This document shows positions 1-57,677 of a DNA stretch of 64,000 bases, piece after piece. Under the pieces are notes generated by a model. It saw only the letters and a list, made by a program, of their open reading frames with translations. It ran no database searches and was not told the DNA's origin. Made by a program: the position numbers and the translations under genes. Each line of letters begins with the position of its first letter. The first letter of the stretch is position 1. This DNA is from Macrostomum lignano (Eukaryota), in NCBI GenBank assembly GCA_002269645.1, contig NIVC01001052.1, positions 124,001 to 188,000 on the forward strand. The letters are read 5' to 3'.

Positions 1-305
1 GCTAATAACGTCGTGCAAAAACATTTACTGCTATTGATAATATAGTATCTAAGAGTTAGGAGTCTTGGTTAATTAATAATTATGTAATTGTTCTGCATTA
101 ATATTTTGCCACTGTTATAATGCCTGCATTCAAAAGCAATACATACAGACTGGACAAACCGTCCATTTTTTCCAGCTTTTTTAAACTGATTTGCCCTCCC
201 TGACGGTAGTGAAGTCAAAGCTTACGTTCACACTTACTTCAGGCCTCTTTAATTAATGTAAAGTCGAATAGATATTAGATATTTTGTCTTAGAAATAGGA
301 TTTTC

Positions 306-2877: not shown

Positions 2878-3403
2878 AAAAATAATAGCAATAAAAGTAG
2901 TCTAATATGTTCCAACTTGTAGCTCAATGATATATACTTTTTAGTAAACTTATCAACAAACTTTTTCTGTTATGCCCCAGCAGTTGAATAGTTGTTTTGT
3001 CTGAACTAATTGTGACTTAAATACTTAATAATGTCAGTGCCAAGGCTGCGTGTGGCACCTTGAGGCATGGCAAAGAGTTTAGCACTGGTATGTGCTCTCT
3101 GGCTCTAGCTAAAAACTGGTCTATAGGCATTTGTCTTTTTATGATGGATGGGCTTGCCCGTCCTGACTAGGCTAAGCTTAGCAAGTGTTGGATGCCGGTT
3201 TTGCCATTTCTCGGCCCAAAATGTGCAGTTATACATATTGTATATATTTTCTGCATGCACAAATCATGCAACCAATAGAAAATAGGCGAAAACAAAACAA
3301 AAAAGCTTTGGTAAAACCACACGACATCACTACATTCTTACAGCTTAACAACAATTTTGGACGTAATGTGTCTTACATACCAGATTAACTCTGATGTCCT
3401 TAA

Positions 3404-5031
3404 CATAATTTTTCACTTCTGCTTCGAATCTGCACTGGTGACAAGTCAAGAAAGAAGCTTGTTTGTGCTTCTTCGCTTGACCAGTTGCGATTAAAAGGAT
3501 GCGAGAAGCTCGGCATTGCTGATGCGGATAATGTCCGGATTGTTACCGAAGATGGCTTCGAAATCGATGACGACGATTTAATACCAGAAATTGCAAAGAA
3601 AGCAAAGTTTGTTTACTTTTTGCTTCAAGGCGAGCTTTTGGACTGTGTATCAAAGCCATCAAATGAGACGCCTTTCATGCCCAGCACTCCTGCCAGACAG
3701 CAAGACAGTAGCTCCGAACTTGTAGGATCTACTGGAGTGAGCATGCCAGGTGGAGCAGCTGCTGGTAGCTTACCGTGGCCTGAGGTCTATACCCTGCCTC
3801 GGATGGGCGAATTGAGTGACGCTCTTCGCGAACTTCGGCTCAATCCAGAAAAGGGTGCAGAGTTCAAAGTTAACCCAACATTTGTAAACCGGTTTCTAAA
3901 GTTCATTATTGAGGACGTCTTTCAACAGTTCAAGTCTGAAGACAATCCATATTTGTCTGGTGTTGAAATTCGCGATATCTGCTGTGCCATAATTGCAACC
4001 TATTCTGGCCTCCGGGACGATTCGCCTGAAGGGTTCCGTTTTTGGCGAATTAAGATTTGCCGTCGCTTGAAGGACCTACGCAGCAGAAAGCTTACGTCAT
4101 TCACAAGCCCAATCGTTCTGCAAATGCGTGGCAAGCATGGGAGGAAGCGCAAAGTAACTGCTGCTGCTGCTGCATGTGCTCCCACTGGCGACACTTCAGC
4201 TGATGAATTGGGTGATGATGGTGTCGACGAACCCATTGACGACTCTGGTGATGATGAGCAACCACCATTTGAGCATCGACCAGTCGAGCCCGACTGTCGA
4301 AGTGTCATGAATAAAAGTGTAGATTTTGAAAATGATGGCACCGTACCCCCAGCCATGAACAGCGACGAGAGCGACTGAATTCTGATTTTGGCAGAGTCAG
4401 TATTTCGGAAGTGCTGGATGAAATGCGTGTGCTATTTCCTGTGCGAATTTCACGATGCCAGGATAAAACTGTTGCCGAGGAAGTTGAACTTTACCGACCG
4501 CTAACTTTATTGCCTGTCATTCTTCAAGAGACTCATCTGATGATTGAGGAGTACAATAAAAGCAAGACAGACTATATTTGTGCATCAGGTCCAAATGAGA
4601 TTCGGACTAACATTACGGCAGCGCTGATGAAAATATACAACAATAGAAAACACCTAAAAAACTACAAGTTCTGCAAAAAATATGTGGATGCCGTCGACTC
4701 TGATGACGAAAAATTGTGTGCTGCAGTCTGTCTTCTTCTTGGTCGGCTGAAGATTGATGCCGAGAAGATTTTTTGCGATGGTCTTCCCGTAAGAATTGTT
4801 CGAGACGAGAACAGCAAGTGGTCCGGCGTTTCTGTCAATGGCGCTACCCTGGTGTTTGATAATGCAGCGGATACCGTCATTGTCTTCATCATCGTGTATG
4901 TTGCTTTCAACCTACAGCATGTCCCCTTCCTGGAACCATTCCTCGAGACGATTGAGGTTCTGGCCAAGCTGCGCAGCCGGTCTGCTGTTTCACGTAGCTC
5001 CGCCAAGACTGTTATTGCATCTTTTCTGTAG
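3404..5031 (+). CDS. CACTA ORF2 (TnpA/SAMD3-like accessory protein) with N-terminal CIDE-N-like domain; -1 frameshift near 4345-4349
   Basis: The frame is open from 3404 and reads LLRICTGDKSRKKLVCASSLDQLRLKGCEKLGIADADNVRIVTEDGFEIDDDDLIPEIAKKAKFVYFLLQGE. ORFs 3485-4378 and 4411-5031 join if one C is added to the CCCCC run. No in-frame ATG was seen, so an upstream exon is probably needed. Confidence 0.65.
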
Positions 5032-9108: not shown

Positions 9109-10477
9109 AAAAGTTGCTATTCTATGTGCCAATGAACAATTTCTCTTGGACTATTCTGAAATAAAAGATGCAAGAAAACTGATTGGGTGGCTTTAATCTC
9201 TCTAAACAAACTTTCACACATTGTATCTTCTCTCCAAGGATAGACCAAGGAGGGCCAAGGGGGCCATGGCCCCCCTTGGCCCTCAGCTCTGGCTCTGCCA
9301 AGGGGGTATTGCTGCCATTGCTGCTGCTGTTGCTGCTGCAACAGACAAGGACTGCTTTAATCTAAGACAAGTTATGAGTAAATAACATTTAAAAATAGTA
9401 ATAAACCCTTTCTATCTCCAATTTAGCAAACCTATACCCATGCTAGAAAAAAAGATAAGCAAAGTAATTTGCTCTTACAATACTACTTAACAGTTAAAAA
9501 ATAACTAACTTATCCATGTGTTGTATGATATTATGGTTGTATTTTCAACTTATAATAGAGCAACTAACACTAGCTTTTAGACAATGCATATATAAGTGTG
9601 GCTCCTTATGAATACTAGTGTTTACTGCATTTATTGTCAGACTGGTGCTCCTATATATACTCCTTGAGTCTTGTAGTTGCTGGCTTTGCAGATTAGCCTA
9701 GACCATTTTAGCTTATACATTTGAGACAATTGGTTATAAAAGCAGACTTTTTTGGTATACGCATAATTAAGCTAGTAATAGAGGCACTTTAACAAAATAT
9801 AATGAAAATGAAATATAAATAATTTTATAAATATAAACAAATTACAATGATCTAAAATTTAAAAGCTGAAATGGATCCTTAAGAAACCTTAAATAGATCT
9901 ATTTAATTCGAATTTTACTATAGCACATTTATATTAATATGATAGTACAAAGTGATTATGATTCTAAATACTTTAAACTTTAGGAAAATGCAAAGCAAAA
10001 TTTTTAACTCTTTTTCTTATATTATAAAAATGTATCAAATTATTTTTTTAAATTTGTCAAAATTGAATAAAATATTGAAATTGAATTATTATTTTTTGTT
10101 TTTTGGGTATGTCACAAAACAAAATTGCAGTTTTGGTCTAAACTAAAGTGTATTTTTGTGATCCTATATAGCTATATGCTTAGGATGAAGTTTTGTGCAT
10201 TAGACAAGCCATCATACTGTATGCATTTAAATGCACTTGATAGAGTATCTATTTTTTAGATTCTAGACCCTATAGCCAAGGTCTAAAATGCACTGAATGT
10301 CTCCTTTCCTGTGCTAAACCATGCCTGCACAATGGCCATTGGCTGCAATAGGGATTTTAGACTAGATTCAAATAATCTAGATTCAATAGTGAGATAACTT
10401 TCCTAATTCTATGAATAAAAAATTGTTAAAATAGTAATATTGTTAAAAATGTTAATAATTTTTTATATTATGTTATC

Positions 10478-11346
10478 ACTACTATATGAACCCGTAAGGC
10501 TTGATTTTGGAGGTGAGGTGGGTGTCAACCCTCCTCGCCTCTCATTGGCTGGCGCCCCGATCACTAGGTGATCGATACCCGTATCGATATCGGCGCTCGG
10601 CGCGCGCGCGCGCCGCAGGCGCCAAGCGCCGCAGGCGACCCTCCCCAGCCGCAGGCGCACCTACCGATATTAGATCCCAATAAATCAATCAGATCCCAAA
10701 TCAATCAGATCCCAAATCAATCAGATCCCAAGCGCACCCTCCCGAGCCGCAGGCGCCCATGCAGCAGGCACCCCGAGTGTACACTCTACCGAGCCGCAGG
10801 CACCCCGAGTGTACACTCTACCGAGCTGCAGGCACCCCGAGTGTACACTCTACCGAGCCAAAGGTACACTCTACCACTCTTCCGATATGTAGTCAACAAT
10901 ATTAGGCTAGTGAAAACTACTTATAGTAGATGAAATTGCGTATATTTACATAAAAAGTAGATAAAACATATTGGTAGGTGTGAATAATGACGCATAATAC
11001 ATATTGGAGCATATGAGCAGCAAAAACACACAATGTAGGTGCATGGGCAGAAATAGACAAAGCAGGTACTGTAGGCGCTACATAGGTGGAAATACACACA
11101 CACAGCAGGTTTACAAAGTGTACTTTCGATACATATCGGATTAATGTATAAAGCGGGTTTACAAGGCATGCATAAGGCGTAGTTGTATAATGCAGGTGCG
11201 CATGTATAATCAGATTATAGGCAAACGCCCAGGTGCAACAGACGCGTAAATAATGTCACACCGACTAAAGAGTAAATATTGTCTAACCCGCAGGTGCATA
11301 AAAATTTTAAACAAAAGCGGTTCGGGGAAATCCCAAAAGGGAGGTT
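10478..11346 (+). repeat. Left terminal inverted repeat (869 bp)
   Basis: Reverse complement of 19028-19919. It contains 16-bp (AGATCCCAAATCAATC) and 32-bp (CCGAGCCGCAGGCACCCCGAGTGTACACTCTA) internal tandem units. Confidence 0.95.
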
Positions 11347-11712
11347 CACGGCCTAATGACCCGATATACTTTCAACACAATTAAACCCACAAGTGGGCTA
11401 GAAAAATGGACAACGTATTTAGATTGCGCTATCAGTACGCTAATCAGCGCAGCAAGTTCATGTCAGGAGTTCTACTCCAAGAGGCGGACCGCTGGGCCAC
11501 AAACCGCCCCAAGGGAATAGGTGTCAAATGGGAGTTTTAACACTTGAGGGGATCCCGCTCAATGTACAGTGGAGGCGCCAAATGAGTAAGGACCCCTAAG
11601 TACAGTGCGGGCGTAAAACCATTTTCATCCCCACGAGTCAAGGGATCCCAAGTGGGCACATAGGGGAATCCCAGGCAGGGAGGCGTAAAAAAGACAGATC
11701 CTTAACTTTCAC

Positions 11713-14700
11713 TCACTCCCGAAAGCCATACGGGCGGCTAGCAGCCCCATACACCCTCTTAGTCATTACGCGCTGGAAAGTCTTGTCCATCTCGAGGGTC
11801 CGGATTGTACAGCTAGCCTTATCGCGCCTGAACTGGGCCTGGGGCAGGCGTACAGTCCCGCCGTGACGCAGAATTTCCTGCAGCTCGTCCTCGCGCTCGG
11901 AAATCTCGGGGGTGACTCTGATGCCCTTGCACTTGAGCACCGAGTACAGTGACCCGTCGGGCTTCTCCACTAAGTACCGGTAGAGCTTGGGGCCTCCCGT
12001 GGTGAACTGTACCATGCGGCAGCCAGCAGGTACCTCGTCAGTCCACTGCCCCAAACTCGAACCGCCCGGAGGCTCGTACTCGCCCGGTGAGCAGCGGTAT
12101 ACAACCCTGGGAGGAGGAGGAGAATAAAGTGTTAAGGGGAGAAAGAGAGACAGAGACGGTTGAAAAAATTACTCACGAATCAGTATCGGCGTAAATGACT
12201 CGGGTTCCTAGGCCCTCCAGAGCCTCGTAGAGTCGCAGCCGGGCGTGGGAGGTGGTGAAAACGCCAATAGGCACATTAGCGTACTTAAACGCCCGCTCGC
12301 CAGCACCGCCAAATCGGGGCTTGTACTCGAGCATCATGAAGCTCTGCCCAATTGGCTCGCACGACTTGACCTTGATCGAGGGTCGGTCAGGCGCTGCAGC
12401 CACGCCTCGTAGCTGTCCACAATCTCTGTGGAGGTCAGGTCGTCGCGCTGGCAGAATTTGCCCCAGAGCCTGCAGGGAAAAATAAATTTTTTTTGTAAGT
12501 AGAAAAACACGGCCCCCACTGCAAGTAGAAAAACTTACGAGTTTAGAAAAATCTTGGCCACAAAGCGCAAGCCAGGATTCTCCTCCACCTTTTCCAGCCG
12601 GACGCCCTCGCGCTCGAAAAAGCTGGCCATGTAGGCAGCCTTGGCGCCCTCAGTCATCCCTGGCGAACCGCTAGACTCGGCTTTGAGCTTTAAAAAAGTG
12701 TTTACATAATCTGCAAACAGACCCGTGCGAGTCTCGGTCCAATAGGCCAGGGCATGAACTGACTGCAGCTTGTAACCCAACTGCAGGGCCTTGTGGAGCT
12801 CTGGGGTCGACCACGTGCCGCGGAGCATTCTCTCAGCGTCAGTGTGTGTACACTCGCTGCTGCACTGGGTCTCCATGCAGACGCGGCAGAGGCCGAAAAC
12901 CAACTTCTTGTTAATCTTGGCGGGCAGTAGCGGGATGTGGAGATTGGTTGGCGGCAGAATCGACACCTCGGCGATGCCAAAATACCGGGCCAGCTGCAGC
13001 TCATCCAGTAGATGAGGCTCGGGGTGGTGTACCGGGTGCCCGACCGGGTACTTGTCAAACTTGTTGACAGTCGGGTAGAGCGACACCTAGGGGATAAGGA
13101 TAAGATAAACTCAAACGCATGTCAACTGTGTGTGTACAAGTGTACAAACTTACCACATCCCGATAGCGCAGCTCTACAGTCTCGGTGGCCTCGGCGTGCG
13201 GGACAAAAGCCTCGGTACGGCCGCCAAACAGGGCTTCCTCCAGGCGAATAGGCTGCTGGACTGGCGCTCCCTCGTCCTGATAGTCGTGCTCCCACAGAAC
13301 ACGCACATTGTATGCAGTGGAGAGCAGCCGGGTGAAGCGCTCGGTCTCTTCATAAATTGCCCGCATTGGCTGGTTCTTGAGCGGGTGCAGCACGTCGCCG
13401 TTGGGGAAGCACTTGGGACAGCCATGGAAGAAACAGCCATGAAACTGCAGCACTGTCCTGGTCTCTGGGTCGAAGCCGTCGACCTTACGGCCCATGGCGA
13501 AAGCCTCGCCGCCAGAATCGGCTGTCCGCAACCGGCCGCCAAACTCGGTTGCATTTAAATGTGCCAGCCAGCACCGCGCCTTGTGCGACTGTACATCGGA
13601 CCGGCGGGAAATCACCCCAAGAGTGTTGGGCTCCATAAACTTGGTGATGAATACCGACATGGCCAAGCCCGCAATGGTGTTGGATTGAACAAATGCGTCC
13701 AGTCCGCAAATGTCCTTAATCAGGCGGGCATATTTCAGGCAGCCTTCCCGCAAAATTAACGTGTCCTGCAGGCAATAGTCCAGGTACGCCTTATTAAAAT
13801 TAAACACCTGTCCCTCCTGCTTGGCCAGCCAGTCGGCGATGGAGTCATGCTGCTTATTCTTCTTCCCGCCGTACATATCAATTGAGCAGTAGGGACCGAC
13901 GTACCCCCAATTTTGAGGCTGATTGAAGACGTGCGGGAAATCTCCTTTGGTCAGTTGGGTGCCCAAACCAAGCGCCTTTGGGAATTGCGCCAGACCAATA
14001 GGGATGAAATTGAGGCTGTCCTTGAAGGTGATCTTGTCGCACTTCATGTACATTAGGCGGCTGTTCTGGAAGATCACCTGCGGCTTCTTCTTGGCCAGTC
14101 CGTTGAGTAGGGCGCCGAGCAGGAGGAATGCGTCATACGCAGAGCCATTGTGCGCAATAGCAATTGCCCCCTGCTTGAACACACTAGTCAGCCAGCAGTA
14201 AAATGCATCGATAGAGTGCGGCCCGACAGATACAAACTCTCGCATCCCACAGGCACAGTCATTGTGCGAGACACAGCTCGTGAAATCCAGCGCCAGATTG
14301 CGTCCCGCAATGCAATTGGCTGAGCTGTGTAGTCCCCCGCACGCGCTGCAGCGGGGCCTGGGGAAGAGTTTGGGACACGCCTCGCAGGAGGTGGCAGCCG
14401 TAACCAAGTGTACCCGGTGCTGCTTGCCAGAGTCCAAGTACGTCTCGAAATCATAGTAAACATACGGGGCGCTAGACTCTTTGGCTTTGGCGGGGTGACA
14501 AAGCACTCGTGGGTGGCAGTTTCGTCGTACTGCTTGCAGACTGGGCACTTGGCATAACCACACTGATGCTCAGGGGGCTGGCCTACTTTTAGTTCTTCTA
14601 GATAGCCACACGTGCCGCAAACGTGGACCGAATCACAGCGCGATCTGCCGGCCTTATTCTTGCGCTTGTGATTTTCTAGGCACTGAGCATTATAGCAATT

Positions 14701-16796
14701 TAGCCCGCAATCATGGCATCTTACATATGCGCGGTTTGCCTTACAGTTGGAGCCCGGAGTCTTGCATGTACTGCAGGCATCAGCGCACTTGTGCTTGGCG
14801 GGTTCGCTATCATAGGCCATCTCGCACTTGGGGCAGTAGTGGTGGCTGCCGAAAAACGCAGGCAGCTTGGTAACCACATTAAAGTGCTGCTCGACCAGGT
14901 GTAGGTGCAGAATCTCGGTGCCAGGCAGGTTGAAGATGCACCTGTTGGCCTCCTCTGCGCGGTACACGCGTACACCAAAATCGCGCCCCGGATGCAGCCG
15001 GTTCAGGGCACGGATCGCTTCGGGCAGTGCATCCACGCCGAAAGGACCAGCCTGCGAGACGGTTTGAAGAGTCTGTGTGGAGGGTAAAATATTTCTTTTA
15101 GTATTCCTTATCGTAAAATTTCTTATCAGAAAATTTTAGTATTCCATGATACTGTGTAAAAATCTTATCAGAAAATATATCTTTTAGTACTCCATGATAC
15201 TGTGTAAAAATTCTTTTAGTATTCCTTATCGTAAAAATTCTTATCAGAAAATTTTAGTATTCCATGATACTGTGTAAAAATTCTTATCGGAAAAATACTA
15301 GAAACTTACCGAGTAGAGACCCGCTTCGATTTGTAGCTCAGCCACCAGCTTAGTCTGCGTGGGCGAATTGGCCTTGATTGTGTGCCACACCTGCTTGGTG
15401 ATGGACTTGGCCACGAATTGCAGGTAGGCGCAGGCCACGACCAGAGCGCGCAGCAGGCATCTCTTGTCCGAGTTGGTGATGCGGACATAGTGCCTGGAGA
15501 AGGCATGCCGCTCTTCTAGATGCTTGTTCTCGAGAGCACATCCACCTCGAGGCACCCAGGCCTTTAGCAGACGGACAGAAAAGTTGCCTGACAATACAGT
15601 GGCATCCGACTGCACAATCTTGTCAATGTGCTTAAACAACAATTCAGCCGTCATGCGGGCTGCACGCACCGGGGGAGTATGGGCTGCTTTGAGCATATTG
15701 TCGCTCTCGAATTTCGCAGCCATGAAATCATCGCCGGCCAAATCTTGCTTGAAAACTTCGAGCATGTCGGCAAACACCTCCCGCAAATCTTCGGTGTTGG
15801 TAATACGCACCACATACTCGACACCCTTTGCCCTAAACTTGGGCAGGTCACGCTGATTATCCAGCCGGGCCGTAAAACCTGCATGGGGGGAATGGGGGAG
15901 TGTGAGTCAGCGCGGGTCTGTGTGGGAAATGGGGGGCGGGATAACTCACCCGGTCCGGTAACAGATTCCGGCTGTGTTGGCGGGACAAACGCGTCTGAAA
16001 AAACACAAGGAGATAAAAAACCAGAAGAATCTGTCATTTTCCTGCCCCAGCGTGTTTCCCCGCCCTAGCCCCAGCAATTTCTTAACAGAGTTTACTCTGC
16101 TGTCCCCGCAGCAACTCTCTGCAATTTCTTATCTGCACCCCCGCTGCAGCCTGTCGCAGCAGTCTTTGTTTACTCACCCCTGCAACTCTCTGTCGCAGCA
16201 ATTTGCACCCCAGCTGCAGCCTGTCTGGGTAGCGCCCTATCTGCAGCCCCAGTCTGTCCCAGCAACTCTCTGCCCCCACCTGGCTGTAACTTGTCTAGCC
16301 TGCCCCAACGATTCTGCAGCAATTTCTTATCTGCCGCAGCACCCTAGCAACTGTCTGTTTTTGCAGCAATTTCTTATCAGCACACCCCTCCCTGTCTAGA
16401 CAACACCCCACCCCAGTCTTTGTTTACTCACCCCTGCAACTCTCTGTCGCAGCAATTTGCACCCCAGCTGCAGCCTGTCTGGACAACACCCCCCTAGCAG
16501 CAATTTCTTATCAGCACACACCCGGCTGAAACTTGTCTAGCCCTCCCCTGCAACTCTCTGTTACAGACCCTGCCGCAGCACCCCACCCTAGCAACTCCAG
16601 TCTAGACCCCTGCAGCTGTCGCAGCAGTCTTTGTTGTTTACTCTGCGGTCCCACAGACCCTGCAGCTGCTGCTGCTGCTCAGCCCCTACCCCCACCCTAG
16701 CAACTACAGTCTAGACAGAAATTAATTAAAACTTACCATAAAGACGTTGCCTCTTGTCAGCCAGAAAGCAGTTGCGGTGGCGCTGCGTTTAGCCAT
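11713..16796 (-). CDS. Protein-primed DNA polymerase B (Polinton type), 7 exons, ~1270 aa, with Cys/His-rich N-terminal region, exonuclease and Vsr-like insert
   Basis: Exons 16796-16737, 15994-15950, 15878-15310, 15051(or 15072)-13154, 13086-12539, 12469-12177 and 12106-11713, all GT-AG. Motifs: YYDFET, IAHNGSAYD, KDSLNF, KGDFPH, YCLQDT, FHGCFFHGC, YRDV|VSLYP, KIFLNS|LWGKF, YADTDS|VVY, GPKLY, KCKG. The model needs three restored single bases (~16766, ~14482, ~12380). The two 5'-most exons are the least certain. Confidence 0.88.
15090..15300. repeat. AT-rich minisatellite inside pPolB intron 3
   Basis: Repeated TTTTAGTA(T/C)TCCATGATACTGTGTAAAAA and TTCTTATC(A/G)(G/T)AAAA units between acceptor and donor. 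Confidence 0.8.
16060..16720. repeat. C-rich mosaic repeats filling pPolB intron 1
   Basis: Recurring GCAGCAATTT, CACCCC and GTCTAGAC motifs. The block CAGTCTTTGTTTACTCACCCCTGCAACTCTCTGTCGCAGCAATTTGCACCCCAGCTGCAGCCTGTCTGG is duplicated (~16160 and ~16414). Confidence 0.7.
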
Positions 16797-16864
16797 TTTG
16801 CAAACAGAGAGTGTGAGAGAGCGAGCGGAGAGAGAAGGATTATCTATCTACCCTGGCTCTGGGG

Positions 16865-16995
16865 GTCTGTATATATACTAAAAAATCTGCTCAGCTCGCC
16901 TGTTATTGGATAAATCGCCAAAAACCAACCAAAATCATCAAAAATCACCCCAAAATCACCACCCACCCCACCCTCCATCCGGGGGTATATAAGGC
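16865..16995. promoter_or_regulatory. Divergent promoter between pPolB (-) and PC4-like gene (+)
   Basis: GTATATATAC at ~16869-16878, about 75 nt before the pPolB ATG. ATTGG (CCAAT on minus) at ~16904. TATATAA at 16986-16992, about 50 nt before ATG 17042. Confidence 0.55.
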
Positions 16996-17041
16996 GCTGC
17001 ACGGCTGTTAGAGAGCTCTCTGCTGCTGCTGCTGCTAAATC

Positions 17042-17583
17042 ATGTCTTCTATCTCTCTATACGAAAACTTTGTGGCGCGGAAGCCCACATTTGAAACTGA
17101 ACACAACTTGATTGAAATTCGGCGTCTCTACACCAACGAGGCCGGAGTGTGGAAGGACGGCTTCCCTGCAATCTACTTGAGCGAGCCAGAGTGGAAGAAG
17201 CTCGACTGCTCGAAGCTGCGCGCCCTGACCTGGAGGCTGCTGCCCGCCTTCACGTGAACAAGCGGGTCCTGTTGGGCAATTTCAAGGCAGTTGAAGCTTC
17301 GCGAGGGAGGATCCGTTTGCTGCGCAATTGGCTCAATCAGGACCCAAAGTTTAATTGGCGCTACACGATCGAATTCACGCCTGAACTGTGGCGCAGGATG
17401 TTTGCCTCCCGTTTGGACAAGCTCTTCAAGCCGGCACCTGAGGCACCCCCTCCAGCCAAGCGAGTCAAGACAGACACGCCTCCGGTAGCAGGGACTGAGG
17501 TGGATGTTCTTCAGCTCGTGGGTCTCAAACCCTACCAATCTCCACCCTGGGAAAATCTGTTTAACGAGGGTTGGGACTGCTAG
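17042..17583 (+). CDS. PC4/Sub1-like ssDNA-binding protein, possibly two PC4-like repeats; -1 frameshift near 17205
   Basis: LIEIRRLYTNEAGVWKDGFPAIYLSEPEWKKL parallels the PC4 core (IDIREYY...G..KPG.KGISL..EQW..L). The overlapping ORF 17149-17583 contains RIRLLRNWLNQDPKFNWRYTIEFTPELWRRM. Confidence 0.55.
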
Positions 17584-17589
17584 TTTCCT

Positions 17590-17630
17590 ATTGGCTCACA
17601 CCGCCTCACTCGATCCGTCTATATAATTAG
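17590..17630 (+). promoter_or_regulatory. Inverted CCAAT and TATA box upstream of ORF 17698
   Basis: ATTGG at ~17590 and TATATAA at ~17620, about 75 nt upstream of the ATG. Confidence 0.45.
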
Positions 17631-17697
17631 TGTTTCCCCTCTCCAGAGAGTCAAACCCTATCTCAGCTCTAATACTTTACTCTCTGTTGATTCTAGC

Positions 17698-18710
17698 ATG
17701 TCCCGCCGAGCTCTATCCAACCTCTGGGATAATAATCGCCCGACTGAAGAGTTAACCAGCCTCGACGGGGATATCCCAGAACACATAGTTCCCCTAGGCA
17801 CTGAAAACAACGGAAGTGATAATTGGGAGGCTGATCAATATCTAGCTTGGGCTATGTCCTATGATAGCGACACCGAGTCTGAAGTTTTTGACCTCCCGCT
17901 GCTGGCTATCGGCGGGGTTGTGAACGGTGCCCCTGCTGCTACTGCCTCCGATTTGACTACCGCCTCAGCCGCCCTCTTTGACGTCTCTGTTGAGGAGCTG
18001 ACCACAACCGGCCCTGCCTCTGCTGCGCCCGTCTCTGCTGCTGCCGCCTCTACTACGCCCGTCTCTGCTGCTGCTTCAACTACCTCCCACCGGGCCTCAA
18101 TATCATCAGCCACTACGCTCCTTCTCTTCGACGACGACGAGGACGAGGATATGTCTGAGGAGATCGCCGTGGTTCGTGAGCGCTTTCCCGCATTGTGGCC
18201 TCATTTTTCCGCGGGGACATTGACTGGTTGAGGTCTCGCCACCCAGGCGGGCTGCCTTCCTAAGCCACCTTTGTCAGAGCCTTTAATCGGGTTCTTGATA
18301 CTTTGGTTGCGAGGGGTGCCGGCCTACGGGAGGTGCTGGAGGCTGAGACTCTGCACCAGGACTGGTTGATGGGGCGCAATTCGTATGCCCCCGACTCGGA
18401 GGCGTACCTGGCCGGTCCGGGAGCACGGCCAACTGCGTGGGATGAGCCCGCCGCATGGCCCTCCAACTGGGAGGAGCACCTTTCGTTGGTGCGCTATACA
18501 GCGTCTCTACGTCTGTGGCGGCTGGAGGACGATTTAGATTTGGTAAGATATTACATTATATACACAACTCATCTAATCATATACCTTGCATATATTCTAT
18601 CTACATTGACTGTTATAATTTCCACATTGCCAGTCATCCGACTACTGCTTCGAGAGCGTGGAGGAAGAGGCCGCGTACGAGACAGCCCTGAGGGAGCGTA
18701 TGGAGATTGA
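17698..18710 (+). CDS. Orphan element-encoded protein(s): acidic Ala/Thr-rich ORF plus downstream ORF with a hydrophobic segment
   Basis: ORF 17698-18231 has an ATG and upstream TATA. The -1 frame is open from 18264 to 18710. They may be one gene broken by a G-run indel near 18213 and a TAA at 18261. Confidence 0.45.
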
Positions 18711-19027
18711 CTGATAAGGGTATTTCTCTTTGTACGCGGTTTGGGGAACCCAACACTGTACACTGGGTAGGTTAGAATGGGCGCTAGCTGGGGGCCTCTA
18801 TGTGTGTATACACGGGGGTTAAAAGACCAATTCTGATAGCTCGCTCCTAGGGAGGAAATTGGCAGAGGGGCCGGCCCAAAAAACTGAAATGGGCTGGCCC
18901 CGGGCTCGAGTCCACCCACCTAAAATATGGAGGGTCATTACAACCTAATGACTCGAAATACTTTCAACGCAATTGTACCTATAAGAGGGTTAGGGCGGCG
19001 GCGGCGGTGGCGAAAACGGGCGGCTAA

Positions 19028-19919
19028 AACCTCCCTTTTGGGATTTCCCCGAACCGCTTTTGTTTAAAATTTTTATGCACCTGCGGGTTAGACAATATTT
19101 ACTCTTTAGTCGGTGTGACATTATTTACGCGTCTGTTGCACCTGGGCGTTTGCCTATAATCTGATTATACATGCGCACCTGCATTATACAACTACGCCTT
19201 ATGCATGCCTTGTAAACCCGCTTTATACATTAATCCGATATGTATCGAAAGTACACTTTGTAAACCTGCTGTGTGTGTGTATTTCCACCTATGTAGCGCC
19301 TACAGTACCTGCTTTGTCTATTTCTGCCCATGCACCTACATTGTGTGTTTTTGCTGCTCATATGCTCCAATATGTATTATGCGTCATTATTCACACCTAC
19401 CAATATGTTTTATCTACTTTTTATGTAAATATACGCAATTTCATCTACTATAAGTAGTTTTCACTAGCCTAATATCGTTGACTACATATCGGAAGAGTGG
19501 TAGAGTGTACATATCGGGAGAGTGGTAGAGTGTACCTTTGGCTCGGTAGAGTGTACACTCGGGGTGCCTGCGGCTCGGTAGAGTGTACACTCGGGTGCCT
19601 GCGGCTCGGTAGAGTGTACACTCGGGGTGCCTGCGGCATGGGCGCCTGCTGCATGGGCGCCTGCGGCTCGGGAGGGTGCGCTTGGGATCTGATTGATTTG
19701 GGATCTGATTGATTTGGGATCTGATTGATTTATTGGGATCTAATATCGGTAGGTGCGCCTGCGGCTGGGGAGGGTCGCCTGCGGCGCGCGCGCGCGCCGA
19801 GCGCCGATATCGATACGGGTATCGATCACCTAGTGATCGGGGCGCCAGCCAATGAGAGGCGAGGAGGGTTGACACCCACCTCACCTCCAAAATCAAGCCT
19901 TACGGGTTCATATAGTAGT
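19028..19919 (-). repeat. Right terminal inverted repeat (892 bp)
   Basis: Matches the left TIR except for sub-repeat copy number. Spurious ORFs 10921-11169 and 19205-19453 translate identically, showing near identity of the unique part. Confidence 0.95.
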
Positions 19920-20516
19920 GTTATCTATCTTATAAAAAGTGAAATGCCAATTTGGTAACTAGAATATAAATTAAAGATATCAAAATGTTAGTTTGATATG
20001 ATAAAGCATTTTATTTAGCCAGCATGTCCTTAATATTAACTAATGCAAGTAGTCTGTCATATGCATGACAGGCCTAGTGTGGTACTGTGATGTGCCATCA
20101 GCTCAGACTTAATTCCAGTCATATTAATTTTGGGGCCAAAAAATATTTCTTGACTTAAATCTGCTTGTACAACTAATGCCCTTAAAGGCCAACCCCAAGT
20201 CACAGTGAAGTTCACAATAAAGTTAGGGTCACTGTATACTCCCATTTGAGTGTGTGCCTATGTGAATGACTGCATATGTATCTGCGCACTTGTTTGTCTG
20301 CTCAAAGAAATCAGTGAAATGGTGCAGTAATGTCTCTTGCTGGTTGTATCACAATGTCGCTTAAAGTGCACTAGGGTGCTGGGTGCACAAAGTCCCATGC
20401 CAATAAAGAATTTATCTCTGTAATGTATACTTTTTATTTAATCAATGATGAACTACCAATGAACAAAATTGTTGATTCCTGCTAAAAGAATCCCATTCAG
20501 CAAAGCAAGCTCAATC

Positions 20517-23500
20517 ATGCCTGTAATGCATGAACGCCCAAAAATGACGCAGACAATGTACCAGTCGCTCAAACGGCACATACTTCGTCAGCGCCAGAAG
20601 GAGGCAGAGATGGTGGCTCTGGACGCCACAAATCAGCGACTACGCGCCGAGCGTGTAGAGATGCGCCGTCAGACAGCGCTGAGCCTGCAGAAAACCGAAG
20701 AGGAAGTCAAACGACTGGAAAAGAAGCTTGAAGAGTTGCGCAAAGAGAAGACGAAGCTGTTTAATCGGTTTAAGGTAGGAATACCCGTTTGTCAATGCTA
20801 GCACATAACCCTGGCTGGCAGTTAATCAATGGCATTATTAGTGGGCTTTTCGCCATAAATATTTTCCGCTGCTAGTGGGGGCGGGGGCAGAGCGTTTTGG
20901 GGGTGTAGGGGGGGGGCAGAGTCCGTTGGGGTGTTTGGTTAGGGGCAGCGTCCCTTGGGGGGGTGTTGGGGGCAGAGTCCCTTGGGTGTGGGGAGGACAG
21001 AGTCCGTTAAGGGTGTGGGGGCAGAGTCCCTTGGGGGTGTGGGGGGGGCAGAGTCCCTTGGGGGTGTGGGGGGGGGCAGAGTCCCTTGGGGGTGTGGAGG
21101 GGCAGAGTCCGTTAAGGGTGTGGGGGGCAGAGTCCCTTGGGGGTGTGGGGGGGCAGAGTCCCTTGGGGGTGTGGGGGGCAGAGTCCGTTAAGGGTGTGGG
21201 GGGCAGAGTCCCTTGGGGGTGTGGGGGGGCAGAGTCCCTTGGGGGTGTGGGGGGGCAGAGTCTCTTGGGGGTGTGGGGGGGGCAGAGTCCGTTAAGGGTG
21301 TGGGGGGGGCAGAGTCTGTTGGGGGGGGTGTGGTGGGCAGAGCGTCCGTTGGTTGTGTGGTGGGCAGAGCGTCCGTTGGGGGTGTGGTGGGCAGAGCGTC
21401 CGTTGTGGGTGTGGGGCAAGCGTCCGTTGTGGGTGTGGGGGCAGAGCTTCCGTTATGGGTGTGGTGGGCAGAGCGTCCGTTGGGGTGTGGTGGGCAGAGC
21501 GTCCGTTGGGGGTGTGGTGGGCAGAGCGTCCGTTGTGGGTGTGGGGGCAAGCGTCCGTAGCGGGTGTGGGGGCAGAGCGTCCGTTGGGGTGTGGTGGGCA
21601 GAGCGTCCGTTGGGGGTGTGGTGGGCAGAGCGTCCGTTGTGGGTGTGGGGGCAAGCGTCCGTAGTGGGTGTGGGGCAGAGCGTCCGTTGGGGGTGTGGTG
21701 GGCAGAGCGTCCGTTGGGGGTGTGGTGGGCAGAGCGTCCGTTGTGGGTGTGGGGGCAAGCGTCCGTAGTGGGTGTGGGGGCAGAGCGTCCGTTGGGGGTG
21801 TGGTGGGCAGAGCGTCCGTTGGGCGTGTGGTGGGCAGAGCGTCCGTTGGTTGTGTGGTGGGCAGAGCGTCGGTCGTGGGTGTGGGGGCAGAGTCTGTTTG
21901 GATGTGGGGGCAGAGCGTCCTGTTGGCCCACATTTTAGCCATAGACAAATTTTCATCAAGAGAAATAAAAGAAGAGAAGAAGAGGGAAGAGACATATGGG
22001 AACTCATTATCACATTATCGGGCTCGCCTAAAGCCTCAGTGACGTAAAAAAGCCAACCAATAATCATTTGCCCCCGATCCTTAATAGTTATCCGATACTC
22101 GAATCCCGTTCGTTCAAACAGGAGGTCTCAGCCGAAGAGTCAAATCAGAAGGAGCGCCAAAAAGAGGCGCAAACTCAACTGCTGCAGCTGTCGCAACAGT
22201 TTCCCCAGTATGGCGCCATCTCTGCCGGGTTGCCGGCGCCTCAATTGCGCGCTCTCGGATACGTGGCTCAGGCTGGCTGTTCAGGTCAGCAGCAGCCGCC
22301 ACCGCCGCCGCCCCCAACACAGCAGCAGCAACAGCAGCAAGTGTCTCTAAAGCGACGCCGCTCGCCCAGTCCTTCGTCTGTAGCGTCGGCTCATTCTAGT
22401 CCAATGTGTCAGGTAAATTTTATGCTTACGTCTATGCAATAAGTTACAGCGGCCCTGACTTTCTGATCAGTACACACCTCTGTGCTTTGGGGATTGGCCT
22501 TTATTGGTTACTAAAGTATTCGCTTAATCGCCACTATTATATCATCCAGGTTAAGCAGAGTTGACAGCGGTTAGTATGAAGTGATACATTTTGGCCTTGA
22601 AAGTTCTGAACCAGTTTAAATGTATTTATCCAGCCAATCAATGCACTCTAACTAGCAGAAACTGAGAACGCGACCACTGCCTCAGCCCATGAGAAACTGT
22701 CGTGTACCATCTAAATTATTCCTCAATGCGAAATACCAAAGATCTATATAAGTTACTGTTATATGAACCACTAAAAATGAAGCTAGAAACTCGCCTTTTG
22801 CTCGCCTACCCGGACAACTGATGCACTGAGAGTCCAGTAGACCAAAGACACCCCCAAACGTAATAAAATTTTTCAAGTACACGTGTTAGTAATGTATTTG
22901 ATGTGATATTCCTCGTTATCTCGCTAATGCATTCAAGTAAAAGCTCCGCAGCCCTGACAGTACGAGTAATAACCTCCGACAGGTCGCCTCAGCCGCTTCT
23001 GTTCTGTCGCAGCAGCAGCAACAGCAGCAATACCGGGTGTCAGTAGCTGGCAAGCTGCCTCCACCCGGCAAGCTGCCTCCGCCGGGGGTTCCGCCGCAAC
23101 AGCAGTTGCCACCGCCGCAGCAGCAGCAACTGCCACCGCCGCCGCCTGTGACGGTGACAAGCCTGGGCTTGAATCCATTCCACGGTCAGCTGCTGTTTGC
23201 CCAGCAGGCGGCCGCTCAGCAGCAGAGCCAGCCTCCGCAGGCCGGCATCAAAGTGTCGCAGGTGCAGCCTCCATTAGCATCTTATCGGGGCTCCATCACT
23301 ACTGGCCAATCGGCTCAGCAGATGCAATTATTGCAACAATTTCAACCTGGCGCCGGATCTGCTTTCGCCGCGCAGCAGCAGCAGCAACAGCAACAACAAC
23401 AGCAACAGCAACAATTGCCGCCGCCAGAACAGCAGTCTGCTGCAGCTGCCGCTGCCGCTGCCGCAGCCGCGTATGCCCGGGCCTATCCCGGTGCTAACCT

Positions 23501-23564: not shown

Positions 23565-23641
23565 CTTTATCAGGTGGCTACTATAACTTTCGTAATTCAA
23601 GTCTAGATAAGGCTTTTTGTAAGAAAGTTTATATGGTCTAT

Positions 23642-24065
23642 GTCTACGGTAAACTCACCCCGCAGCGTGCAGGATTGGTTATGTCTATGGTAAACTCACC
23701 CCGCAGCGTGCAGGATTGGTTATGTCTATGGTAAACTCACCCCGCAGCATTGTAGGACTGGTTATGTCTATGGTAAACTCACCCCGCAGCGTGCAAGATT
23801 GGTTTTGTCTATGGTAAACTCACCCCGCAGCGTGCAAGATTGGTTTTGTTTATGGTAAACTCACCCCGCAGCATTGTAGGACTGGTTATGTCTATGGTAA
23901 ACTCACCCCGCAGCGTGCAGGATTGGTTATGTCTATGGTAAACTCACCCCGCAGCGTGCAGGATTGGTTATGTCTATGGTAAATCTTCCCACAGCGTGCG
24001 GGATTGGTTATATCAATGGTAAATTTCCCCGCAGCATGCAGGATTGGTTGTCTGTGGGCTAGCTT
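23642..24065 (+). repeat. 41-42-bp tandem array, ~10 copies
   Basis: Unit GTCTATGGTAAACTCACCCCGCAGCGTGCAGGATTGGTTAT, starting at 23642, 23683, 23724, 23766 and onward. Confidence 0.95.
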
Positions 24066-24154: not shown

Positions 24155-27100
24155 CAGGGTGTCCGCGCGAAATTCAATATTAATTTCCAGGTTTTTCCAG
24201 GTTTTTCCAGGTTCAAATAAGTAAAGCTCCAGGTTGCTACCTGGTGAAGCTTTATAAAATGAAACGTAAAAAATGAAATGGAAAGTAAAAAATGGGTAAA
24301 ATATACAGTCTATTGTCAATGAGCCGTCCATTAAAACTACAAGACTAACATTGAACGAAACTGAAACTCGCAAAATAGAACATAAAATGGGACATTTATG
24401 GAAGTGAAAATAAAGCAAAATATGCATGACAGTAAACGTTCCGCCAATGTTCAGCAAATAATTATGAGCTTTTTAAGTACTTGTAACTAACTGTCGTCAG
24501 TTACCAAATGTACTTAGGCGAGCCTTTTGCGCAACTCCTCGACACGAGCAAGCGCCTCTGTCTCTTCAGCCAACAGAGCACGTCGCTTAGCTTCGAGCTC
24601 CTGTTCGATTCGGAAAATCTCGTCAGTCGCTTTTCTCTTCTGGGATACGGTGACCGCTGTGTTCGATTTCTCCTCGTCTCGTTTTTCCTCCAAGGCATCA
24701 CGGTAACGCTGCCTGGCCATTCTGACACTAGATAGGAGATTTTTGGAGAGTAAGATGTTCTTGCGGCCACCAGCTACTGTTATAGCATCCTGGACTTGGC
24801 GCAGGGACACCAAAGAATCCTGCAGGAGGTTAGGCACCAGCAAGTCCTTGTTCACAGAAAATCCACTTTCAACAGTGGCATTGCCATGCGACATTATCAA
24901 GACCATGCTTATCGGCTTCCAGAGCGCATCTCTGGCTGCTAGCTGCAAGCCGTGAAGCACACTTGCAGTGGCTTCTGCACCAGCAAGCAGGTTCCAGTAG
25001 AGCGTGTCTACTCGCTCACTCGCGGCATTAAATGCGGCCATTGTTCTCTGAACCTCTGGACTCTCCACAAAAGTCCCAAAACTGCGTTGAGCAAGGTCGC
25101 ACCCATCTGCAGATAGTCGATGACACTCCATGAGGTCCGTAAGTAGCATCCGAAAGCGCTGTTGGCTGACTTCTGGAGAGCTGCAAATGAGTGTTGGCGA
25201 GAGAGAGCTAGCTCCGCGAACAATTGGATATCGAAGAGGCGACTTCTCTAGAAGTTTTTCAATCAATTTGCAGTAGAACTGCTTGCATTCCGAAAGGAAT
25301 TTCAGTTTGTCCTGCTCTGAAATCGTCTTCTCAGCAAGAGCGACACCCAATTCTTTTCGTGCGGCGAATCCAATGTCAATTAACTTTGCTGGCAAAGCAG
25401 CCTTATCCAGTTCCAAATTCGCCAGATCCGACACGGAAGCCTTGGTGACAATCTGTTGCGTAAAATAATAAGACAATATATATACTATGGAACTACAGTT
25501 GAAGTCAGTCGGCTGCATTGAATTACCTACTTACCTCAGGCTTCAAAAAAAGGCGACCAACAGTAAGAACGATGACGCTCAGCTTCTCATAGAGAAAGAC
25601 AAACATCGGCTTCTTTGTCTGAAATTCGAGTAAGAATGGCTCAAGAAGCAGCGAAACACTGCGGAAGAACTGAAGCTTAGCTGAAAGAAGCGGATCCTTG
25701 CACGCATCGCGAATCTCGCCCATCAGTTGACTTCCTTCGCCTTTGACCTTAAATTTAAAGCGCAACGTTTTGACAGCTCCGATTCTGTTTAAACATACAT
25801 ATGTTTTGGCTACTGTGGATAATTAAGATATACAAAAAATGTTTTTCTCACCGCTGCTTTCCGGAGCCACATCTTAAGGTTAGGCAGAATGGCAATTGCT
25901 CGTGAAGCCACAGGAGAATTCTCTAGCCAGCGGACAAGGCAAAACTTCAGTGGAAATTGGGTGTCGTTAGCTTTCGTGAGAGAAATGTACTCAGCTCGAC
26001 GTGCTGGACAGTCCTTAAGAAGCCGGTATAAGCTCCGCAAAAATCTGTTGAGCTCCCATGAAGTTGCAGCATGGCCGCACTGAAAAGCTCGGCTGACGGT
26101 ATGCAAGCCGCATGTCCCAGCTTCAACAGGAACCGGGCTTTCAGGAATAGCAGAAATTTTGCCTTTCAGCAGTCGTAGAGTCTTTAAATTTACATTTGGA
26201 CCGTCCATTGATACTTGTAGTACGGATGAAAGTGGCAGGTTTTTTAAGACGGACTCGAGTGCTTCAAGCAGGTTTTCCGCCTTGGTCGAGCCTAAAAAAG
26301 CAGATCCAAGATACTGGGATTGAACCTGATGGCGTTTGTTATCCCAGAATCGAACATGAACGTCCATCTGACTCTTTTGTGTAATCTTGTTTAGAGCCTC
26401 ATCATAGCAAACTACGATGTCGGTACAGGCAGCCAGGTTCTGGCGCAGCTCTTGCTCGAAGAATGGAGCGAGTCCAAATTTCAGCATGTAGCCAATCTGT
26501 TGGAATGGATGTAGAGTAGGGTTTTTAACTTTAATGTTGCATTAATTTTTAACTAGGTTAAAAATAATTACACAAAATACATAACAATTACATACCTTGT
26601 CTCGGCCCAATGAAAAGTGCTTAGCAATTTCACTATCAGGAAACATATCTTGAAATGTTTCAGGCAGCCCATCAGCCGAACGCATGCTGTAGTTTTTTTC
26701 AGCACAAAACAATGCCCACGTGACTTCAGCCTTCAGGACAGCCTCCCTAGTGAAGTAGTTCAACTTAAGGACAGTAGATTGCTGTGGTTGCTGAAGTGCT
26801 ACTAGTTGTTCTTGAACCGTAACTGTTGCTGTAGATGGCTCCACAGTGTCACTGATACCATCCTTGGGCTTCTGTGACTGCTGCTGAGATGATGACAGCA
26901 TTGCACGAACACTGTACTGGGAACTCACAGCAGTGGCATTCTTTACATGTGTTGACTGGCGCATGTGGCTATCAATTGCAGCTTTGCCCATGTTGCTCAA
27001 CTTGAATTTTTTGTTGCAGACAGCACAAAAAGCAGCAGCTGAATCCCCTGGTGCCTTCTTTAAAAAGGTTGCATATTGTGGAAAACAGTTGGCATTCAGC

Positions 27101-27736
27101 CAAGCATCCAAGAACCTTGACATAATCAGGACTGTGATAGCGCAGTGCTCAGTGCTAGAAGAAAAATTCAGGAAAGCTAGTAGATCGTAGAACACCAGGT
27201 TCAAGTAAACCTCATACAATTCTCTACACTATATAAAACAAACTGTCTTCATTACATAATATGAACTGCTTCTACTAAATTCATCGATCTGAACAAATGT
27301 CAAGACATTACAGTTATAGGGTCTTGTAGATTGATTAAATCTAGATTATTTATTTCTTGTATTATACTAACTGAAGAACAAAATTAAAAGTATAGAATAA
27401 AAGACTTTGCTATAAATATACAATTTAATAAGAATATAACTATACAGGAGAGGTTGTATTTGTAACATACTATGACATGGTAGCAGCATTTTTTAACAAC
27501 AAAGTTTCTATCACATCATATAGCATAATGGCATGCATTACTAAATTATAGTCTATTTCCACTTTCACATTACACAGATCATAGGAAGAATGATAAATTC
27601 CAGGTTTCCCCTCCCACATTGGTGTATTTCCAGGTTTTTTCTTCTGTTTTGGGGCGTTTCCAGGTTTTTCCAGGTTTTTTTGCATTTCCAGGTTTTTCCA
27701 GGTTTTTCCAGGTTTTTCCAGGTCGCGGACACCCTG
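24155..27736 (-). mobile_element. hAT-superfamily DNA transposon (3582 bp) with 6-bp TSD
   Basis: TIR CAGGGTGTCCGCG / CGCGGACACCCTG, flanks GGCTAG (24149-24154 and 27737-27742), subterminal TTTTCCAGG repeats and an internal transposase. Confidence 0.9.
24514..27123 (-). CDS. hAT transposase, 4 exons (27123-26596, 26496-25852, 25784-25535, 25452-24514)
   Basis: BED-like finger (FCAVCNKKF...SHMRQSTH), YDEALN, SMDGPNVN, GTCGLH, RWLEN and C-terminal HGNATVESGFSVNK. The exon 2/3 phase needs one base removed, for example from the A-run near 25859. Confidence 0.82.
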
Positions 27737-34559: not shown

Positions 34560-34812
34560 CTAGCCTAGACATAACCAATCCTGAACACTGCGGGCTGAGT
34601 TTAACATAGACAAACATCCTACACGCTGCGGAGTGAGTTTACCATAGAGATAACCAATCCCGCACGCTGCGGGGTTAGTTTACCATAGAGATAACCAATC
34701 CCGCACGCTGCGGGGTGAGTTTACCATAGAGATAACCAATCCCGCACGCTGCGGGGTGAGTTTACCATAGACATAACTAATTCTGTACGCTGCGGGGTGA
34801 GTTTACCATAGA
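34560..34812 (-). repeat. Second array of the 41-bp unit, ~6 copies, inverted relative to 23642-24065
   Basis: GCGGGGTGAGTTTACCATAGAGATAACCAATCCCGCACGCT is the reverse complement of the 23.6-kb unit. Confidence 0.92.
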
Positions 34813-34861
34813 CAACGAATCTTGTACACAGAATCAAGAATAGGCAAGCCTCCTTATAGTC

Positions 34862-41200: not shown

Positions 41201-41975
41201 TAGTTAGTCTAGTGGTATAGTGGTATAGTGGGGGGCTGGCCGCCCCCCACACACCTGGCATTAGTTAGTCTAGTGGTATAGTAGGGGGCTGGCCGCCCCC
41301 ACGCCCCTGGCATTAGTTAGTCTAGTGGTATAGTGGGGGGCTGGCCGCCCCCCACGCCCCTGGCATTAGTTAGTCTAGTGGTATAGTGGGGGGCTGGCCG
41401 CCCCCACGCCCCTGGCATTAGTTAGTCTAAGTGGTATAGTGGGGGGCTGGCCGCCCCCCACGCCCCTGGCATTAGTTAGTCTAGTGGTATAGTGGGGGCT
41501 GGCCACCCCCCACGCCCCTGGCATTAGTTAGTCTAGTGGTATAGTGGGGGCTGGCCGCCCCCCACGCCCCTGGCATTAGTTAGTCTAGTGGTATAGTGGG
41601 GGGCTGGCCGCCCCCACGCCCCTGGCATTAGTTAGTCTAGTGTATAGTAGGGGGCTGGCCGCCCCCCACGCCCCTGGCATTTATTAGTCTAGTGGTATAG
41701 TGGGGTCTGGCCGCCCCCCACGCCCCTGGCATTAGTTTCTCTAGTGGTATAGTGGGGGGCTGGCCGCCCCCCACGCCCCTGGCATTAGTTAGTCTAGTGG
41801 TATAGTGGGGGGCTGGCCGCCCCCACGCCACTGGCATTAGTTAGTCTAGTGGTATAGTGGGGGGCTGGCCGCCCCCCACACCCCTGGCATTAGTTTCTCT
41901 AGTGGTATAGTGGGGAGTTGGCCGCCCCACGCCCCTGGCATTAGTTTGTCTAGTGGTATAGTGGAGGGCTGGCCG
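38278..41975. repeat. Satellite array, ~52-54-bp unit, roughly 70 copies
   Basis: Unit GGCATTAGTTAGTCTAGTGGTATAGTGGGGG(G)CTGGCCGCCCCC(C)ACGCCCCT; variation lies mostly in G/C run length. Confidence 0.98.
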
Positions 41976-57629: not shown

Positions 57630-57677
57630 TGAAGTTCAAAAAGCTTTGATGAAGGGGACTCCCTTCTTATATGCAAT

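Follow-up and report, generated by a model that had tools for sequence, protein, structure and literature searches.

How does a Polinton-like element that encodes a DNA polymerase, and neither an integrase nor virion proteins, come to be inserted in a genome? The question is raised by a 64,000-nucleotide stretch of the Macrostomum lignano genome (assembly GCA_002269645.1, contig NIVC01001052.1, positions 124,001 to 188,000 of the forward strand), referred to here as the window. The element occupies positions 10478–19919 of the window (9,442 bp) and has the termini 5'-ACTACTA...TAGTAGT-3'. The original prediction, made from the letters alone, described a 9.4-kb element with long near-identical terminal inverted repeats (TIRs), a perfect 6-bp target site duplication (TSD), a pPolB polymerase, a PC4-like gene and retained splice sites, and proposed that it is a satellite borrowing its integrase, and perhaps its capsid, from a helper Polinton. 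The description is borne out below, and the proposal is replaced by a different one. The element probably belongs to a bipartite Polinton, in which a replication segment (R) and an integrase/virion segment (S) complement each other in trans as a mutually dependent pair. The window element is likely the R segment, its partner being a 10.5-kb family (S2) located elsewhere in the genome, and two further families, B and S1, likely form a second such pair.

Polymerase-only elements form multi-copy families

The two TIRs of the window element differ by 2 substitutions over the 869 nt of the left arm that were aligned, all other differences being 57 gap positions in repeat units, and the hexamer GTTATC flanks the element on both sides. 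A contig of the DNA run that joins the two flanks (Table 1) is consistent with the empty site of the element. Another contig of this run (X1) joins position 10530 to 19870 with 40 other letters between them, which suggests a miniature derivative of about 140 bp. A genome search with the TIR, in which the best 40 of 171 candidates were scored, returned mostly pairs of ends about 8.1 kb apart. The original prediction had asked for further copies with different TSDs, and 18 of the 19 other copies fetched have both ends, their own perfect 6-bp TSD and a length of 8.7–10.1 kb; since each has a distinct TSD, the element represents a multi-copy family (family A) and not a one-off deletion.

The genome searches scored the best candidates only (138 of 148, 135 of 440 and 113 of 1570), and the locus counts that they gave are lower bounds. 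The pPolB search gave at least 142 matches, which were sorted by eye into at least 67 loci of family A, at least 33 of family B and at least 5 others. The polymerases of A and B are about 68% identical, the splice sites of three pPolB introns lie at matching positions in both, and the two form one clade among pPolB2-type relatives (FastTree, support 1.0, 26 rows), which provides the phylogenetic placement that the original prediction had called for. Family B elements are TIR-bounded, have a 6-bp TSD and the ends ACTACGTA, and measure 9.5–9.9 kb when free of insertions. One B subtype shares the layout of A, with pPolB divergent from the PC4 gene and a low-complexity ORF, and adds a dUTPase-like gene (L070 in G000:C2132, L074, L203). 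In G000:C2132 this gene is duplicated inside 2.2-kb TIRs around an apparent insertion that we take, from its motifs, to be of the THAP/P-element type, and in G000:C157:54556-84000 (L074-L076) several rearranged, partly inverted B-type polymerase copies are clustered within 30 kb. A third, decayed family has ACTACTT ends, a length of 10.3 kb and a TSD. No integrase, capsid or other gene of the S families was found in the A or B elements, in agreement with the predicted lack of an integrase and virion module. A genome-wide Pfam rve search was swamped by long-ORF retroelement-like matches.

Structural elements carry the integrase and capsid genes

The S elements were discovered through an ACTAC end adjoining a complete Polinton and followed by integrase, capsid, protease-like and ATPase-like genes. 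A search of the genome with the S capsid separated two families, S1 with at least 33 loci and S2 with at least 29. Fetched copies measure about 10.1–10.4 kb (S1) and about 10.5 kb (S2) and have TIRs of 0.4–0.8 kb. A 6-bp TSD flanks all 14 S copies for which both ends were found (S1 7/7, S2 7/7), as it does such copies of A (18/18) and B (7/7). All S genes lie on one strand and comprise several unassigned ORFs, the integrase, a putative minor capsid protein, a small basic protein, the major capsid protein, a putative protease and a putative ATPase; S2 carries an additional ORF that we take to be Fic-like from its motif. The integrase exceeds the Pfam rve cut-off. The model of the major capsid protein, of low confidence (pLDDT 50), matches double-jelly-roll capsids in Foldseek with E 6e-12, and the protein has an Atlas score of 0.98 to PF21738 clusters; its predicted fold is that of a double-jelly-roll capsid. 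ORFs adjoining the capsid gene show 25–40% similarity to genes from this genome's complete Polintons and contain what are presumably Walker A/B and His/Cys motifs, the basis of the ATPase and protease labels.

Metagenomic relatives have capsids 47–78% and integrases 68–71% identical to those of S (P0121-P0124, P0127-P0132), so the S lineage exists beyond the Macrostomum lignano genome; no contigs bearing these relatives were found in scans of viral and metagenome contigs. In a tree of 28 rows the S1 and S2 integrases are sisters (99/93) within a clade that includes six metagenomic integrases, far from the integrases of complete Polintons.

The two gene sets are complementary

No pPolB2 match was found in the 21 fetched S loci, none of the 20 S loci tested with all markers matched pPolB1, pPolB2 or PC4 at E<=0.01, and the 64 S loci are all more than 25 kb from each of 105 pPolB2 loci, the smallest separation being 48 kb. 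The R and S gene sets are complementary and were never present on one molecule among the loci examined. Polintons are defined by a polymerase and an integrase on one molecule. The long TIRs and 6-bp TSD of a Polinton/Maverick are present here, and the PF03175 polymerase is found on R, the double-jelly-roll capsid on S only, and the integrase on S and not beside pPolB; neither half is a Polinton by itself, and together they function like one. As in a multipartite virus, the complementary segments have matching termini. The proposal of a helper was correct to the extent that an element with the same ends, an integrase and a capsid exists; S2, however, has no polymerase or PC4 gene and is not a complete helper, so that the dependence between R and S looks mutual.

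No complete helper with R as its satellite was found. The complete Polintons of this genome, recovered by the capsid search, are 15 and 18.5 kb long and have AGTAG ends and a pPolB1-type polymerase. They were rejected as helpers together with the further Polinton families of 30–35% capsid identity, which have their own pPolB1 and, where read, AGTAG ends; C1390, one of four such 30–35% loci, has no polymerase within the stretch fetched. Family B was also rejected, being itself polymerase-only at 9.5–9.9 kb. As candidates for a monopartite parent, C56, with S2 ends 18.4 kb apart, contains no Polinton gene, and the long S2-ended loci C2210 and C4 are S2 elements with insertions. No whole-element parent was found among the approximately 160 loci of halves.

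Among distant pPolB2 contigs in IMG/VR, an integrase lies nearby in 2 of the 9 examined and a match to the S capsid in none. One contig of this collection, L142 (13,142 bp), has 101-bp terminal inverted repeats and pPolB2, and gave no match to the S integrase or capsid.

Polymerase-only and structural elements share their ends

Judged by their first 27 nt, the 114 ends of fetched loci are of two kinds, ACTACTA (A, S2 and A-type palindromic elements) versus ACTACGTA (B, S1 and B-type palindromic elements). The mean nearest-neighbor distance over these 27 nt is 2.6 for A-S2 and 3.4 for B-S1, compared with 13.3 for A-S1 and 11.9 for B-S2. Four exact 27-nt haplotypes are common to A and S2, and one S2 end (G000:C633:252528) is identical to the end of the window element over 32 nt. 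Genome-wide, all 57 S2-type ends start with ACTACTA (control, 0), and a subterminal motif of A and S1 occurs at 303 ends (control, 0). Nucleotides 1–7 and the sequence beyond nucleotide 27 are fixed across ends, unlike the hypervariable nucleotides 8–27 (window 10485–10504), which vary in blocks of 6–7 nt with 110 of 190 site pairs failing the four-gamete test. Left and right ends are identical in 35 of 48 elements. The A and S2 TIRs are unrelated past about 32 nt. The terminal 32 nt likely comprise the replication origin and the integrase site. The hypervariability of nucleotides 8–27 may be due to host silencing, to satellites or to keeping the two systems apart.

Both halves are under selection

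Within family A, among copies selected for open frames, pN/pS is 0.06–0.07 for pPolB (8 and 15 copies), 0.42 for PC4 and 0.27 for the orphan gene; within S it is 0.06 (S2) and 0.09 (S1) for the capsid and 0.14 and 0.24 for the integrases. These ratios indicate purifying selection on both halves. Between the two systems dS ranges from 1.7 to saturated, with identities of 88% for the capsid, 82% for the integrase and 55–71% for pPolB exons. Because both systems are split and dS between them is saturated, the split likely predates the divergence of A+S2 and B+S1. Left and right TIRs mismatch at a median of 0.33% of positions in A, 0.85% in S2 and 1.6% in S1, by which measure the present copies are young.

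A proposed mechanism

The mechanism that would account for these observations is drawn from known Polinton biology, in particular the terminal-protein and vOTU domains (PMC11071308). After excision, the terminal-protein/pPolB and PC4 proteins made by R would replicate any linear DNA with a cognate terminus by protein-primed strand displacement, and the integrase made by S would insert any DNA with cognate ends. The S-made capsid, protease and ATPase would package molecules of about 10 kb, possibly with one to a particle. If co-replicating molecules exchanged their termini during strand displacement, mosaic end haplotypes common to R and S would result, with ends homogenized within a molecule and shuffled between molecules, and snap-back replication errors would give rise to palindromic satellites.

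Taken furthest, this mechanism describes an active multipartite integrating dsDNA virus with a double-jelly-roll capsid, whose segments of about 10 kb are packaged separately, co-replicate and exchange a hypervariable 20-nt terminal "password" that separates two co-resident systems, tracked by palindromic defective satellites. We would put this fuller reading at slightly under an even chance; whether particles are still made is, in our estimate, close to evenly balanced.

Alternative explanations

Several observations weigh against a bipartite Polinton or its viral form. The pairing of A with S2 and B with S1 is not clean at every position, since A matches S1 and not S2 at nucleotides 28–50, and the fetched ends of B and S1 have no exact 27-nt haplotype in common. 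A recognizable PC4 gene is absent from all of the first 7 fetched B copies. The protease, minor-capsid and ATPase labels on S are putative and derive from motifs and position, the S protease gave no match against the PDB, and a search of the genome for PF04665 gave 0 matches. Particle formation and co-replication are inferred from integrated copies, the read data being contigs, which are blind to molecule ends, and the transcript evidence covers R. The pN/pS values come from selected open-frame copies and non-independent pairwise counts. Finally, because only the best candidates were scored in an assembly of 5,269 contigs, a rare full-length parent could be missed. The link at nucleotides 28–50 between A and S1, together with an internal stretch of 136 nt shared by B and S1 at 88% identity, also suggests past exchange between the systems.

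A two-component DNA transposon, whose halves complement each other only in the germline nucleus and which no longer makes infectious particles, is a less likely explanation. In its favor, the evidence is all from integrated copies, the copies are numerous, and pPolB has spliceosomal introns, which intact vertebrate Mavericks are described as lacking (PMC8097293). Genes copied only by trans complementation have been argued to drift neutrally (PMC8097293), and the capsid pN/pS of 0.06–0.09 in recent copies and the capsid identity of 88% between systems at saturated dS speak against such drift. The sizes of unnested elements, moreover, cluster at about 8–10.6 kb, as a packaging limit would give.

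It is improbable that a full-length Polinton still exists, absent from the assembly or from the scored matches, and gave rise by separate deletions to A and S2, and likewise to B and S1. Non-autonomous Polinton derivatives exist in the Repbase literature, and the searches are lower bounds in a fragmented assembly. The TIR bodies of A and S2, however, differ beyond the terminal 32 nt or so that they share, so they cannot both be recent deletion products of a single parent; halves were found at about 160 loci and a whole element at none, the only candidate with S2 ends 18.4 kb apart carrying no Polinton genes, and both systems, with saturated dS between them, show the same split.

Least probable of all, R would borrow an integrase and S a polymerase from complete Polintons with no special tie between R and S, an arrangement favored by the abundance of complete Polintons (two families with PF21738 capsids plus those of 30–35% capsid identity, in one of which an A copy is nested). 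Against it, the Polintons read have AGTAG termini, encode a pPolB1 of their own and have integrases distant in the tree from those of S1 and S2, and the exact A/S2 terminal haplotypes go unexplained.

Gene organization and expression of the probable replication segment

The features of the window element, taken here as the R segment of a bipartite Polinton, are listed in Table 1. Two exons of the pPolB gene match PF03175 with E 1e-13 and 1e-12. The domain names given to its long exon derive partly from motifs that we take to mark these domains. They rest also on PMC11071308 and PMC10748475, and the terminal-protein region is predicted from its position, after PMC11071308. The first exon probably lies at about 16738–16797, with a long intron before the small exon; no long frame crosses the 5' part in 8 copies, and the polymerase of family B has an N-terminus similar to that of A. 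A PC4-like profile of five sequences matches human PC4 with E 2.7e-6, and PC4/Sub1 structures fill ranks 1–9 in a search with the model (pLDDT 76), where no match reached E 0.001; the tandem PC4-fold protein is likely a single-strand DNA-binding protein. The original prediction had named a divergent integrase or capsid as what the orphan ORF might prove to be. It is neither, judging from HH probabilities of 0.4% and 0.3% against integrase and capsid alignments, and gave no usable match in Pfam, PHROGs or Atlas.

Contigs of 2–3 of three putative RNA runs skip five introns of pPolB and one of the orphan gene, in keeping with the predicted splice sites, and none of these joints occurs in contigs of the DNA run. 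The three runs are guesses, none being recorded as RNA, that are supported by their own splice joints; R thus appears to be transcribed and spliced. In the window copy all three genes are hit by frame breaks (about 12380 and 14490 in pPolB, 17200–17250 in PC4, 18190–18260 in the orphan gene), which may be assembly errors or real mutations; the same positions are open in other A copies and in run contigs. All five pPolB exons tested are open in 4–5 of 21 copies, by a test that can overlook frameshifts in short exons.

Table 1. Features of the Polinton-like element and its flanks, in window coordinates
Feature	Position	Strand	Remark
Left 6-bp TSD, GTTATC	10472..10477		DNA-run contig joins 10470 to 19919
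Left TIR, ~870 bp	10478..11346	+	
Terminal 32 nt, ACTACTA and block-variable nt 8-27	10478..10509	+	Same as one end of S2 copy G000:C633:252528
Subterminal 23 nt	10505..10527	+	Exact match to S1, structural segment of the other system
pPolB last exon, polymerase C-terminal part	11713..12106	-	Splice joint in run contigs
pPolB exon with LWGKF and YADTDS motifs	12177..12469	-	Frame break ~12380 in window copy
pPolB exon, palm region	12539..13086	-	PF03175
pPolB long exon: vOTU-like C-terminal part, Cys-rich region, exonuclease, VSR-like insert (presumed domains)	13154..15072	-	Frame break ~14490
pPolB exon: predicted terminal-protein region, vOTU-like Cys motif	15310..15878	-	
pPolB 5' part	15950..16797	-	Small exon ending 15950, 3' joint seen
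Tandem PC4-fold gene	17042..17583	+	Broken in window copy
Orphan gene, two exons; acidic, low-complexity N-terminal half	17698..18714	+	Intron 18543-18633; broken in window copy
Right TIR	19028..19919	-	
Right 6-bp TSD, GTTATC	19920..19925		

Palindromic and nested elements

Near-perfect palindromes of 6–9.4 kb that have the same ends and no recognized gene are abundant (for example L078, G000:C1300:61235-69728; L069; L134-L137; L061-L064). A direct 6-bp TSD flanks 14 of the 17 palindromes with both ends; C1580, C1190 and C356 have inverted, not direct, flanks and may be fold-back assembly artifacts. Since gene-less palindromes have TSDs, insertion needs neither integrase nor polymerase in cis. 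B-type palindromes derive from the non-polymerase side of B, and A-type palindromes combine A TIR ends with pieces about 70% similar to the S2 TIR. The palindromes resemble defective replicons produced by snap-back, and many of the 303 ends with the A/S1 motif may belong to them.

In G000:C4072 (L098/L117) an A copy has inserted into the capsid gene of a different Polinton family. Other nested insertions (L118, L046, L071-L073) include an 18-kb Polinton in a 15-kb one and a 12-kb Polinton in an A-type palindrome. The 12-kb insert (G000:C106, L071-L072) contains the remnant of a pPolB1, a PC4 gene of its own and ORFs that we presume to be DEDD exonuclease- and TBP-like. Elsewhere in the window there are two minisatellite arrays and other long ORFs that resemble those of transposons and LINEs (279–5028, 24517–27228, 54048–58523, 20840–21930 and 38200–41900), and inverted repeats at about 23640–23980 and 34620–34815 that may flank another element.

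Comparison with known systems

The split system resembles the Polintons/Mavericks (Polintoviricetes; adintoviruses) of the pPolB2 class, as described in PMC8097293, PMC10748475 and PMC11071308, in its pPolB with an N-terminal extension and VSR-like insert, rve integrase with a chromo-like tail, double-jelly-roll capsid, long TIRs, 6-bp TSD and purifying selection. It differs from Mavericks in consisting of two separately integrating molecules of about 9.5 and 10.5 kb (range 8–10.6 kb) instead of one of 12.7–24.6 kb (PMC8097293). According to the same source, vertebrate Mavericks have the ends (AGT)2, (AG)3 or (AC)3A, as opposed to ACTACTA, ACTACGTA or ACTACTT here, their genes are intronless whereas pPolB is spliced here, and their gene modules are divided differently, with ATPase, PM and PZ placed with pPolB (PMC8097293).

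The Acheta domesticus segmented densovirus, unlike the split system described here, is not known to have an integrase. It is an ssDNA parvovirus with rolling-hairpin replication. The Bidnaviridae have an ssDNA genome and a parvovirus-type capsid, and neither they nor the Drosophila Vesanto virus are known to have an integrase or a double-jelly-roll capsid; both of these, the integrase being of the rve type, are encoded by S. Bidnaviruses and Vesanto virus nevertheless resemble the present system: their genomes are segmented, one segment encodes a pPolB related to that of Polintons, and the termini of the segments match. They are described as ssDNA and parvovirus-like (PMC8502044, PMC8363768), whereas the present system retains the integrase and the full morphogenesis set, and each of its segments integrates. 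The densovirus offers a further likeness, a normally monopartite DNA virus lineage split into replication and capsid segments, one per particle (PMC10267136). Cytoplasmic linear plasmids and Polintons without a morphogenesis module are also pPolB replicons without capsid genes (PMC11071308, PMC4028283). In these the virion module was lost, whereas here it survives on a polymerase-less partner, and R has lost the integrase too and yet integrates.

No description of a bipartite Polinton, or of the Polintons of Macrostomum lignano, was found in the literature searched, with Repbase entries and supplements outside its scope and an earlier description therefore possible. At least one large survey counted only integrase-linked pPolB genes (PMC10748475), and surveys of this kind would miss split systems or file them as two kinds of decayed copy. 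The pairs described here provide the strongest kind of indirect evidence for action in trans by the polymerase and integrase of Polintons at a terminal signal of about 30 nt, and a split Polinton would be a natural parallel for the origin of segmented pPolB viruses such as bidnaviruses. Database proteins that are 95–99% identical carry the name of the host, Macrostomum lignano, which is a laboratory flatworm. Since R is apparently transcribed and spliced, virion formation by animal Polintons becomes testable by observation in worm culture. If the multipartite-virus reading is true, polymerase-only Polinton-like elements in other animals would be the overlooked halves of similar split viruses.

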